Both the position numbers and the translations under genes were made by a program. The notes under the pieces were generated by a model. That model saw only the letters and a program-made list of their open reading frames with translations. It was not told where the DNA came from and did no database searches. Shown here piece after piece: positions 516 to 16,156 of a DNA stretch of 17,423 nucleotides (position 1 is its first letter; every line of letters starts with the position of its first letter). Source of the DNA: an uncultured Deinococcales bacterium (GTDB lineage Bacteria; Deinococcota; Deinococci; Deinococcales; JAAFIG01); assembly GCA_964244895.1 (NCBI GenBank), contig CAXTKV010000108.1, positions 1 to 17,423 of the forward strand, in the 5' to 3' direction.

Positions 516-556
516 CGTCCCAGACGGTGTATTTTTTGAATACACCGTCTGGGACG
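516..556. repeat. Palindromic intergenic repeat copy 1 (perfect 18-bp inverted doublet), probably also a terminator
   Basis: CGTCCCAGACGGTGTATT (516-533), loop TTTTG, AATACACCGTCTGGGACG (539-556); 20 nt after the stop codon at 495. Confidence 0.85.
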
Positions 557-636
557 CACTTTTATGGCAGAATGCAGCATTGCGCATCCTGCCATTTTCG
601 GGTTTTACATGGCGCGGATCGGGTAGGCTCGAACCC

Positions 637-1386
637 ATGAACAACCTGATCACCGTCGCCTTCGACGGTTCGCGACACGCGATCCACGCAGCGCTGCTGG
701 CCAGCGAAATCGCGTCGCGCACCGGCGCGAGGCTCGAGGCGGTCTTCGTCGAGGAACCCCACGGCCTGTTGGACGCGGTACGGCGCGCCGCGCCAGCCGC
801 GTCGCTCGCAGCCGCCCGCGCGACCTTACGAGAAATTCAGCCTGAGCTCGAGTTGCAGGTGCTGCGCGGCAAGCTCGAAGCCGAACTGATCCGCCTGTCG
901 CGCGATGTCGGTTTGCTGGCGCTCGGTTCGGCTGGACTGCGTCAGGAACGCGCCGGAGACGAGGATCAGATCGACGTGCGGGTCGCCAAAATCGTCTCGA
1001 ATGCCCACGCCCCGATCCTGATTGCCCCCGCAAAACCGCCGAGAATTCAGCGGATTCGACTGGCCTACAGCGCCCCTTCGGGCAAGGCCATCGCGGCTGC
1101 GGCGGATTTCGCGCGCGCCACCGGCTGGCCGCTCATCGTCAGCCTGTTGCCCGACGATGACGCTTCGACTGACGAGGGTGAACGCTCCGTGCACGCCCTG
1201 GAGGTGCTCGAGGATCACGGCATCACGGACGCGCTGGTGGCCTACGCGCGCGGTCGGAGTTTGCTGGAAGGACTTCGAGCCTGTGCGACCCCCGGCGACA
1301 TTCTGGTGCTGTCCGGCGAGGATTTCGGATCGCTCATACACGCGATTGGGGCGCTCGGCTTGCCGGTCATCGCCGTCGGAGAATAA
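637..1386 (+). CDS. Universal stress protein (tandem USP-like domains)
   Basis: N-terminal ITVAFDGSRHAIHA...A..IA...GARL..VFV, LLALGSAG and APILI are typical USP motifs. ATG 637 is preceded by the -10 box TAGGCT (624-629). Confidence 0.8.
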   Translation: MNNLITVAFDGSRHAIHAALLASEIASRTGARLEAVFVEEPHGLLDAVRRAAPAASLAAARATLREIQPELELQVLRGKLEAELIRLSRDVGLLALGSAGLRQERAGDEDQIDVRVAKIVSNAHAPILIAPAKPPRIQRIRLAYSAPSGKAIAAAADFARATGWPLIVSLLPDDDASTDEGERSVHALEVLEDHGITDALVAYARGRSLLEGLRACATPGDILVLSGEDFGSLIHAIGALGLPVIAVGE

Positions 1387-1520
1387 CTGGCGCGGCTCGA
1401 GGATCGTCTCGGCTTGATGGCGCGGCCTCGGTGCTCTCGGCGGTTCAGAACGAGCCGTATTCGAAAAATCACTCGAGTGCACCCGAAGCGCTCGATTCGC
1501 ACCGTGGCCTGCGCACGCCC

Positions 1521-2885
1521 TCAGGTGCGCAAACTGGAGGGCGTCTCGAGGCTGCGCCTTCCGGCGAACAACTGCACGAGCGCCTCTGAGAGCGCGTCGG
1601 GTTCGTGTTGACCGCCGCCGGAGTCCGTCAGGTGCGCGCCTCGAAGTTGAATTCCGGCAGCCCGGAACGCGGCAGCGTCCACGATGGCGGGTTCGGCCTC
1701 TTCGGCGCGGTAGCGTTCCAAGGTCGCGTTTGAAATCGGCGCGGTGTTGACCAGCACCACATCCGGCCTGCGGCCCAGGTGGGACTCGAGCGCCCTGACG
1801 TGATCCAGAGCGCTCATGCCGTCCGTCTCTCCGGCTTCCGTCATGATGTTGACCACGTAGACGAGCTTCGCGGACGACCCGCAGATGGCCGCCCCGACCT
1901 CCGGCACGAGCAACGGCGGAATCACGCTCGAGTACAGGCTGCCGGGGCCGACCACGATCAACTCCGCGTCCCGAATCGCGCCCAGCGCTTGCGGCATGGC
2001 GGGCAGGGCGGGCGGGTCGAGCTTTAAGCGCTGAATGCGGCTGCGGCTGGCGCGGTCGCGCAGGTTGCTCTCGCCGACGACGCGGGTTCCATCCTCGAGT
2101 TCCGCGACCAGCACGGCGGCGGCGCTGGTCGCGGGAATCACCTGCCCGCGCACCTGAAGGATCGTGTTGACCGCCAACGTCGCCTCGGCGAAATCGCCGC
2201 GCTCTTCACTGAGCGTCGCCAGCAGCAGGTTGCCGAAGGTATGCCCCTCGAGCCCCTCGCCGCGCGCGAAACGGTGCGTCAGCAAACTGGCCAGCAAGGG
2301 CGATTCGGAGAGCGCCGCGTAACAATCCGTCAGATCGCCCGGCGCGGGCATGCCGAGCGCCTCGCGCAAGCGCCCGCTCGAGCCGCCGTCGTCGGTCACG
2401 GCCACGATGGCCGTTAGGTTGGAAGAAAAGCGCTTCAGGCCAAAGAGCAGGTTTGAAAGCCCCGTTCCACCGCCGATGGCGACGATGCGCGCCCCACGGC
2501 TGAGGTTGCGCCTGGAATAAATCGTGTCGAGCGTCTCGAGCGGTTGGGCTCCGATGGCCCGCAGGATCGAACGGTTCAGACCGACGATGCCCGTCCAGAC
2601 CACGCCGACGCCCGCGACCAACAGTAGCGCGCCCGTGATCCAGCTCGGCCAGCGACCCGGAATCAGGCTGCCGACGCTCTCGGTGACTTCCGCAAAAAAC
2701 GCCCGCCACGGCCCGACGCGACCGAAGTGAAAGAAGCCGATCATCAACGAGGCCAACCCGACCGCGATCAAGGCGGCGTACCGTTTGACGCCCATCCCCG
2801 GCACCAGCCAGCGCCAACGCTCGAGCACCCGACCGAGCTTGGTGCTGCGGTCGAGGACCGGCAAGACCAGCGCGCGGCGGGCCAT
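1521..2885 (-). CDS. yvcK: YvcK/GlmR family UDP-GlcNAc-binding gluconeogenesis factor, long form with N-terminal transmembrane segments
   Basis: Motifs IVAIGGGTGLS, VTDDGGSSGRLR, PGD, GHTFGNL, GPGSLYSS, NIMTEAGET. ATG at 2885 overlaps the rapZ stop (TGATG). Confidence 0.92.
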   Translation of the reverse strand: MARRALVLPVLDRSTKLGRVLERWRWLVPGMGVKRYAALIAVGLASLMIGFFHFGRVGPWRAFFAEVTESVGSLIPGRWPSWITGALLLVAGVGVVWTGIVGLNRSILRAIGAQPLETLDTIYSRRNLSRGARIVAIGGGTGLSNLLFGLKRFSSNLTAIVAVTDDGGSSGRLREALGMPAPGDLTDCYAALSESPLLASLLTHRFARGEGLEGHTFGNLLLATLSEERGDFAEATLAVNTILQVRGQVIPATSAAAVLVAELEDGTRVVGESNLRDRASRSRIQRLKLDPPALPAMPQALGAIRDAELIVVGPGSLYSSVIPPLLVPEVGAAICGSSAKLVYVVNIMTEAGETDGMSALDHVRALESHLGRRPDVVLVNTAPISNATLERYRAEEAEPAIVDAAAFRAAGIQLRGAHLTDSGGGQHEPDALSEALVQLFAGRRSLETPSSLRT

Positions 2886-14287: not shown

Positions 14288-15937
14288 ATGGCCAAATCAC
14301 TGACATTCGATGAAAATGCGCGTCGCGCCCTCGAGCGCGGCGTCAACGCCGTCGCCAACGCGGTCAAAGTCACGCTCGGGCCGAAGGGCCGCAACGTGGT
14401 CTTGGAAAAGAAGTTCGGCAGCCCGACCATCACCAAGGACGGTGTCACGGTCGCCAAGGAAGTCGAACTCGAAGACAAGATCGAGAACATCGGTGCGAAG
14501 CTCCTGATCGAGATCGCCTCGAAGACCAACGACATCACCGGTGACGGCACGACCACCGCCACCGTGCTCGGTCAGGCCATCGTGCGCGAGGGCCTCAGGA
14601 ACGTCGTCGCGGGCGCGAACCCGCTGGCGCTCCAGCGCGGCATCAACAAGGCCGTCGAGGCCGCCGTGGCCGCCATCAAGGACATGAGCGTCGCCGTCAA
14701 TGACCGCAAGGCCATCCAGGAAGTCGCCAGCATCAGCGCCAACGAAGCCGCCATCGGCGTGCAGATCGCGGACGCGATGGAGAAAGTCGGCAAGGAAGGC
14801 GTCATCACCATCGAGGAATCCAAGACCCTGGACACCGAAGTGGACGTGGTCGAAGGCATGCAGTTCGACAAGGGCTACGTCAGCCCGTACTTCATCAACG
14901 CGACCGACACGATGGAAGCCGTCCTCGAAGATCCGTACATCCTGATCAACGAGAAGAAAATCAGCTCCTTGAAGGACCTGCTGCCCGTGCTGGAACCAGT
15001 CGCGCAGGCCGGACGCCCGCTGTTGATCATCGCTGAAGACGTGGACGGCGAGGCCCTGGCCACGCTGGTCGTCAACAAGCTGCGCGGCACGCTGAACGTC
15101 TGCGCCGTCAAGGCCCCCGGCTTCGGCGACCGCCGCAAGGAAATGCTCAAGGACATCGCCGCCGTCACCGGTGGCACCCTGATCGCCGAAGAGCTGGGCT
15201 ACAAGCTCGAGAACGCCACCGTGCAGATGCTCGGTCGGGCCAAGCGCGTGCGCATCACCAAGGACGAGACGACGATCATCGACGGTCTGGGCGACAAGTC
15301 CGAGATCGACGCGCGGGTCAACGCCATCAAGAAGGAACTCGAGGGCACCGACAGCGACTACGCCAAGGAGAAGCTCCAGGAGCGCTTGGCGAAGCTCGCG
15401 GGCGGCGTCGCCGTGATCCGCGTCGGTGCAGCCACCGAAACCGAACTCAAGGAAAAGAAGCACCGCTACGAGGACGCCCTCTCCACCGCTCGGGCCGCCG
15501 TCGAAGAGGGCATGGTTCCCGGAGGCGGCGTGACCCTCTTGCGCGCCATCGTGGCCGTCAAGAAGGCCGCCGAGAAGCTCGAGGGTGACGAGGCCACCGG
15601 CGCGCGCATCGTGATCCGCGCCCTGGAAGAGCCCGCCCGTCAGATCGCCGCCAACGCTGGCTTCGAAGGCAGCGTCGTGGTCAACGAGATCATGGGCAAC
15701 AAGACCAAGAATTACGGCTTCAACGCCGCGACCGGCGAGTACGGCGACATGATGAAGTTCGGCATCGTCGATCCGGCCAAGGTCACGCGCACCGCCTTGC
15801 AGAACGCGGCCAGCATCGGCGGGTTGATCTTGACCACCGAAGCCGTGATCGCCGACAAGCCCGAACGCGAGAAGGCCAATGCCGGTGGCGCTCCCGGCGG
15901 CATGGGCGGCATGGGCGGCGGAGACATGGATTTCTGA
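14288..15937 (+). CDS. groEL: Chaperonin GroEL
   Basis: [33 protein letters not shown]-terminal GGM repeats. SD AGGAGG. Confidence 0.99.
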
Positions 15938-15995
15938 ACCCCGGCGCAAGCGGGTTCATCCCGCTTCCGGAGTGAGGGCTCGAGCACTCGAGTCG

Positions 15996-16028
15996 AACGA
16001 GGTTGGGATTTTCCCAACCTCGTTTTTT
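15996..16028 (+). terminator. Rho-independent terminator of groESL
   Basis: AACGAGGTTGGGA-TTT-TCCCAACCTCGTT followed by TTTT. Confidence 0.9.
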
Positions 16029-16099
16029 GATGTCTCCAATTCGAGCCGCATCCGCACCCGACGCACCCTGAGACAGTCTCGCAATGCGATTGCACCGTC

Positions 16100-16156
16100 A
16101 CATCGTCCCAGACGCATCGTCAGATGCTCAAATTAGGCGTCCTGGACGGTGTTCTC
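16100..16156. repeat. Palindromic intergenic repeat (inverted doublet)
   Basis: ACATCGTCCCAGACGC (16100-16115) ... GCGTCCTGGACGGTGTTCTC (16137-16156). Confidence 0.8.

Follow-up and report, generated by a model that had tools for sequence, protein, structure and literature searches.

What is the short palindromic motif that recurs behind the genes of contig CAXTKV010000108.1, a stretch of 17,423 nucleotides from an uncultured Deinococcales bacterium? This contig, called the window here and taken at its full length, is one of the 328 contigs of a 5.12-Mb genome assembly (G000) that is 91% complete. The original prediction took its ten repeat units and two degenerate traces, every one of which we found again in place, for an undescribed family akin to repetitive extragenic palindromes (REP) and their inverted doublets (REPIN), spread by a RAYT transposase. 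Since the motif has the defining features of neither REP/REPIN nor DNA uptake sequences (DUS), we set it apart from both; it works most like a site for integration host factor (IHF). We propose, at a probability of roughly 0.57, that it would be the site of an IHF-like DNA-bending host factor of the Deinococcota, multiplied mainly in place in this genus, with HU as the lead, though unproven, candidate for the protein that binds it.

The paired motif and its placement

The thousands of copies foreseen for the family are indeed there. The 16-mer AACACCGTCNNNSACG has 816 + 817 matches in the genome against 2 + 0 for the reversed pattern, and a matrix scan gives 4,401 cores that form 2,724 clusters, or roughly one for each intergenic region (5,306 half-site matches, against 24 in the reversed control). 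Each of 40 relatives, none of them a congener, holds at most 7 matches to the 16-mer pattern. The unit is an 11-bp quasi-palindrome, CGTS-NNN-SACG, with A/T-rich arms on either side that are of an outer (GAGAACAC-type) or an inner (GC plus a T tract) kind, and its central triplets come as reverse-complement pairs.

Among 959 head-to-head pairs, the centres lie 25 bp apart in 653, 26 bp in 45, 35 bp in 171 and 36 bp in 38. The same peaks appear for pairs with a palindromic partner and for the weak partners of apparent singles, and those at 25/26 and 35/36 bp hold whatever the inner arms. Furthermore, AA/TT steps show a periodicity of 11.2-11.7 bp in register with the sites that extends 80-100 bp to each side, in coding flanks too, with an amplitude of 0.016 against a maximum of 0.005 in the jittered null; the signal is lost beyond about 80-138 bp. 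The putative kink steps are CG, TG or CA in 5,259 and 5,214 of 5,299 half-sites, and the two CG steps of the core lie 9 bp apart, which is the kink spacing of HU and IHF. In the window, the sites are arranged as follows:

516-556: tail-to-tail dyad, cores at 521 and 551 (30 bp), a perfect 19-bp hairpin 21 nt past a stop codon
3837-3893: core at 3847 and degenerate core at 3888 (41 bp), upstream of a rapZ-like gene
4020-4069: head-to-head dyad, cores at 4032 and 4057 (25 bp), 3 nt past a stop codon
6988-7048: dyad, cores at 6999 and 7034 (35 bp), the second site a full palindrome followed by a T run
8696-8749: dyad, palindromic core at 8708 and weaker core at 8743 (35 bp)
9719-9773: dyad, cores at 9738 and 9764 (26 bp), between convergent genes, with CTCGAG flanks
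11082-11140: dyad, cores at 11093 and 11128 (35 bp)
11783-11832: head-to-head dyad, cores at 11795 and 11820 (25 bp)
11941-11955: degenerate single core at 11946, in the der promoter region
13651-13697: near-consensus head-to-head dyad, cores at 13660 and 13685 (25 bp), in the der/groES interval
16100-16156: dyad, cores at 16109 and 16143 (34 bp), 163 nt 3' of groEL
17083-17101: degenerate single core at 17092, at the edge of a low-GC region

The unit at 7021-7047, originally taken for a self-complementary singlet, is one half of a 35-bp dyad whose partner core lies at 6999. The claim that no unit lies inside a gene holds for the window, where all matrix matches are intergenic, but not for the genome, in which 299 of the 2,724 clusters are genic (11%, an approximate count because the gene calls come from our own hexamer model). 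Eight of the ten window units lie at most 25 nt after a stop codon, as had been said of most of them, while those at 3841 and 16100 are farther away; of the 1,963 elements located behind a gene end genome-wide, 1,027 keep within the same distance.

An element is present in 476 of the 628 convergent regions, in 1,373 of the 2,970 tandem ones and in 329 of the 645 divergent ones, and elements avoid one another: 137 regions carry two or more, against 384 expected under size exclusion, and the coefficient of variation of their spacing is 0.81 against 1.03 expected. The higher the codon score of the gene upstream, the higher the occupancy, which climbs from 0.54 to 0.81. The motif is rare in accessory DNA, and the long element-free stretches examined hold sugar-catabolism clusters with insertion sequence (IS) remnants, as well as BREX, ABC-3C and PRTRC genes (62 of 73 genes scanned).

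Such placement could also reflect an element that acts as RNA, whose hairpins selection would keep as terminators, for 3' protection or as processing sites. Each of the ten window elements folds well, with z-scores of -3.2 to -8.9, and four overlap terminator-like calls; convergent regions have the highest occupancy (476/628), arm triplets covary in the 25-bp class, and full hairpins with T runs follow some tRNAs. Single sites, however, show no orientation bias (166 versus 183), 51% of divergent regions are occupied, and arm covariation in the 35-bp class is weak (53 versus 44±5). The helical-phase spacing, the phased flanks and the position at origins described below are moreover properties of duplex DNA, and T content shows no asymmetry between sense and antisense, from which it follows that classical terminators are a minority. 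The predicted co-option as terminators thus holds for some elements, with at least five T in 8.3% on the sense against 3.9% on the antisense side, and fails for most, the mean T count beyond the arm being 2.30 versus 2.29 of 8 positions. As an account of the family, we consider an RNA-level role very improbable.

Origins, tRNA ends and HU genes of relatives

The relatives fall into families f1-f5, of which we read f3 as Deinococcus-type and f5 as Thermus/Meiothermus-type. In 29 of 364 genomes (28 without the unpublished G276), none of them in f4 or f5, the exact core stands directly after a tRNA arm, against 1 in the control. In an earlier reading by eye of the rare matches in relatives, one of whose searches selected for CCA, they lay immediately behind tRNA genes, between the iterons or arm repeats close to integrases and primase-helicases, and ahead of leading-region genes. 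Since proteobacteria employ IHF at tRNA ends, att-like sites and mobile-element origins, this placement resembles IHF usage, and a site at oriC was predicted from it before the origins were tested. Two further observations concern such loci. In Deinococcus-type genomes, the leading regions of integrative elements (L011-L013, L109) have 2-3 motif copies ahead of ribosome-binding sites, and in single-stranded form two of these copies could pair as a long hairpin. On contig C151 (8015-11705), an array of about 27 tRNA genes has the motif after some of them.

At the origins, the best core lies at -18 to -20 from the DnaA box next to the DNA unwinding element (DUE) in 29 of 33 relatives (f1 14/16, f2 5/5, f3 7/8, f4 3/4), a count based on 41 dnaN loci, one of them that of the source genome, from which 7 without an anchor had been dropped; 1,000 shuffles gave a mean of 3.1 and a maximum of 9. 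The origins of the source genome and of G006 have the core at an equal distance from the last DnaA box, and the two Thermus-type origins carry a core at -20 and half a core, respectively. The motif also shares its presence at att-like sites and mobile-element origins with typical IHF sites. It differs from them in its palindromic, GC-rich core, which is unlike the IHF consensus, in its occurrence in a phylum without IHF, and in the thousands of phased pairs in one genus. Its place at the origin is that of the E. coli oriC IHF site: IHF or HU is placed in an interspace of ~34-35 bp beside the DUE-proximal DnaA box, E. coli binds IHF there, an HU-bound interspace is described for the oriC of both E. 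coli and T. maritima, and IHF is limited to three phyla (PMC10325909). The prevailing view is that outside the proteobacteria HU carries out the origin-bending step with no preference for sequence, and a conserved Deinococcota origin motif that recurs at tRNA/att sites and HU promoters would offer a concrete target for Deinococcota proteins such as those of D. radiodurans or T. thermophilus.

The source genome has three PF00216 genes, all of which align as HU and none as IHF, and the closest matches to its HU are HU proteins of Deinococcus. In 15 of 16 aligned proteins the arm reads GV[KR]PG instead of GRNP. Of 53 regions upstream of HU genes, 13 score at least 12 and 23 reach p<0.05, kin among them not being independent; in comparison, 880 kb of relatives hold 14 such intergenic matches. 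HU would be the lead candidate because it is universal here, carries the GV[KR]PG arm and has the site at its own promoters, and because the CG steps lie 9 bp apart. Another factor is about as likely, since the occurrence of the motif is not tied to HU type, both types being found in genomes that have it. A search of the genome for a DUF1931 histone found none.

If the motif is such a bend site, a homodimer would introduce kinks at two pyrimidine-purine steps separated by 9 bp. Two such dimers would bind as a pair, one helical-turn class apart, and the flanks would writhe for 80-100 bp. Selection or drive in this genus may have favoured one bend per gene boundary, with sites built up mostly by substitution and conversion in place, and some copying. 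The likely effect would be that supercoils driven by transcription are kept apart at gene ends, with secondary roles as hairpin and terminator. In a more far-reaching version, which we regard as tentative and rather doubtful, the HU of the Deinococcota, with its phylum-specific GV[KR]PG arm, would act as an IHF analogue with sequence specificity, and its ~2,700 phased docking pairs, one at each gene boundary and some reaching into proteins, would make up an insulator grid written in the sequence, setting bends and supercoil domains for one gene after another. Multiplication of the site on this scale, which reaches as far as residues of pheT, would give a bacterium a means of encoding its chromosome architecture that is neither transposition nor uptake drive.

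Arising in place, copying and drive

How, then, did the sites accumulate? Genes contain the 15-mer 53 times, where synonymous shuffling leaves 10.4, and one peptide that the in-gene motif encodes is present 25 times rather than 0.6. The 36-bp dyad inside pheT aligns without gaps to 17 genomes and displaces a cysteine that is invariant in all 17. When 35 genic sites were compared with 880 kb of two relatives, 23 were ungapped and 12 gapped, and 33 of the 35 had no element-sized extra sequence. In a ~93%-identical relative (run X1), six window elements are kept with a net length change of 0 to 14 bases, conservation in this congener being judged over the window. No target-site duplication was found at any boundary tested, and 635 of 638 dyads of the main class are unique. 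We infer that the sites accumulated mainly in place, with some copying.

A hyper-abundant palindrome that arises in place recalls the highly iterated palindromes (HIPs) of the HIP1 type, which at 6-8 bp and mostly genic differ from this longer, paired and intergenic motif (PMC5861425, PMC4390886). The genome has a HIP-like palindrome of its own, shared by the whole family and often abutting motif arms: CTCGAG stands at 4 per kb in the source genome and 7-10 per kb in relatives (family f1 loci L038-L063), and in genes at four times the synonymous expectation.

In-place origin is shared with DNA uptake sequences, where the competence machinery would prefer motif DNA and molecular drive would fill the genome wherever tolerated. 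Like the DUS of Neisseria and Pasteurellaceae, the motif is dense (about 1 per kb), evenly spaced, present on both strands and formed by substitution with a peptide bias, hits less conserved protein parts, makes dyads at gene ends and is rare in accessory DNA (PMC2817400, PMC7811141); comEC is intact. Yet DUS and uptake signal sequences (USS) have a non-palindromic core and lie to 35-65% in genes, and close USS pairs give no extra uptake (same sources), whereas the present core is palindromic, mostly paired and 11% genic. Its retention at the origins of low-copy relatives is a further difference, and the fixed place at origins, tRNA ends and HU promoters of low-copy genomes would be left unexplained. 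We therefore consider uptake improbable.

Closest to the original prediction is a non-autonomous mobile element of ~46-57 bp, similar to a REPIN or a miniature inverted-repeat transposable element (MITE). It would have acquired two host-factor sites, been copied around the genome in the distant past and decayed afterwards, the enzyme being lost or missing from the assembly. Pairs with host-factor sites are known from E. coli, where the bacterial interspersed mosaic elements (BIMEs) of the BIME-1/RIP type carry IHF sites. The search for a RAYT did find a RAYT-like gene in the genome (contig C12:40664-41188, also delimited as 40619-41188; profile NF047646, below its cut-off), with HUH and tyrosine motifs, but did not tie it to the motif. 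This sole RAYT sits among its own REPs, two GTAG palindromes unrelated to the motif, and so does not bear out spread by RAYT. Its GTAG family numbers 63 copies with homologous flanks and a nearest-neighbour divergence of 0.14, against 0.36 for the dyads; the nearest motif lies 0.75-1 kb from the GTAG REPs on C12, and none of 12 RAYT-like loci in five other genomes contains the motif. The PF01797 profile gave no Y1 transposase in G000 or in G166, a relative discussed below, which was a miss of sensitivity, because NF047646 later matched RAYT-like genes in both. As such, an ordinary REPIN system coexists with the motif family in this genome, and the two behave differently.

The absence of a GTAG end, already remarked in the original prediction, is confirmed by the position profile, and the CGTC of the motif lies within the paired core; a REP is defined by an unpaired terminal GTAG (or CGTC) tag followed by a 6-13-bp stem (PMC3733652; bioRxiv 10.1101/2021.07.10.451892). 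With REP/REPIN-RAYT systems, BIMEs and CGTC REPs, the motif has in common that they are short, extragenic, in hundreds of copies, in inverted pairs and 3'-biased, with some in genes (same sources), and, with REP/REPIN, a presence in both convergent and tandem regions. It differs from REP/REPIN in having no unpaired GTAG/CGTC tag, in a RAYT that here serves another REP, in its quantised spacing, in copies that are nearly all unique and in being about ten times more numerous.

Other movers were considered. A four-helix-bundle protein that seemed common to G000 and G166 occurs in 70 of 201 genomes, with heptamer-array flanks and a strong site in 0 of 34 loci, and DUF559 and GIY-YIG genes do not single out G000 by their counts, their loci not having been scanned for the motif. 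Tyrosine integrases have 11 matches in the genome. Mobility would account for the extragenic position, the inverted halves and two length classes, the excess of identical spacers with three identical dyads in unrelated flanks, the clearly copied G166 cassette with the same core, the restriction of abundance to the genus and the breaks in congener synteny at two elements, and the genome is only 91% complete. The near-identical GTAG REPs that the RAYT present keeps for itself speak against it, as do the uniqueness of 635 of 638 copies without target-site duplication at the tested boundaries, the indel-free origin in pheT and most genes, the avoidance of occupied regions and the lack of any link to four-helix-bundle, DUF559 or GIY-YIG genes. 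On balance, a mobile element is unlikely.

Several observations nevertheless weigh against an IHF-like bend site multiplied in place. As regards copying, 12 of the 35 genic sites are gapped against a background of 5.4%, two of them with element-sized extra residues, and one run X1 contig stops matching exactly at the elements 9719-9773 and 11783-11832. There are 45 identical spacer pairs where 14.6 are expected and three identical 46-bp dyads in unrelated flanks where 0.6 is expected, and the 25-bp class shows covariation between arm triplets (334 versus 227±9). G166, of family f5, has 43 motif copies against at most 6 in 25 congeners; its core is part of a homologous cassette that is flanked by heptamer repeats, and half a core lies 36 bp upstream, from which it follows that copying can spread the site. 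As regards the host factor, seven loci were dropped from the origin count, five g4 origins score below zero at the position in question, and three Meiothermus-type origins have a different interspace. HU type does not follow motif occurrence; the third HU gene, tried as a factor specific to the source genome, is also present in three low-copy relatives; and HU is described as sequence-non-specific (PMC10325909). Nor does the proposal account for amplification of the site in this genus alone. The 36-bp offset recurs across families, in the dyads of the source genome and in the G166 cassette. The cassette itself (loci L165-L167, L185-L204) is species-specific, ~150 bp long and present in at least 43 copies, with the motif inside inverted heptamer arrays.

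Database comparisons and other features

In keeping with an undescribed family, the exact motif strings are in no paper searched, subscription papers, figures and supplements being outside that scope; the literature on Deinococcus repeats, the tRNA motif, oriC/IHF, USS spacing and nucleoid chromatin immunoprecipitation likewise held nothing related, with figures and supplements again outside it. Rfam gave no match near a gathering score. The multi-copy repeats of D. radiodurans include SRE and SNR; the motif itself has at most 7 copies in each f3 genome scanned. Collection scans gave five unrelated GC-rich genomes among the matches listed for the dyad pattern and two isolated viral matches, with no RNA holder of the motif listed. 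A weak plasmid match was rejected, as it lies inside an IS4 coding region. The metagenome contig L064, from a related organism, carries a dyad behind the same gene as the source genome, with a different spacer and offset.

Heptamer tandem arrays are found at 53 places in the genome, among them window 14170-14240 (the groES/groEL interval) and C80:4334-4648, and at L215-L219; similar arrays flank four-helix-bundle genes, one of which lies just upstream of pheT. Upstream of groES, HAIR-like and CIRCE-like boxes (window 13729-13749 and 13806-13832) presumably point to dual control by HspR and HrcA. The low-GC tail of the window (17123-17423) contains an open reading frame whose start resembles the end of a Hint (intein-like) domain, which we take to be as in orphan bacterial polymorphic-toxin modules. 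A low-GC open stretch on contig C58, between dnaA and the neighbouring gene upstream, may encode a small endonuclease-like protein. At window 6189-6988, two small lipoprotein genes in tandem show cupredoxin-like C-terminal Cys/His/Met patterns by eye. Finally, the Der GTPase at 12013-13626 has a long Lys/Ala-rich tail, and its second G domain reads DTAC; run X1 has G at 12697, so that an assembly error in the window is possible.

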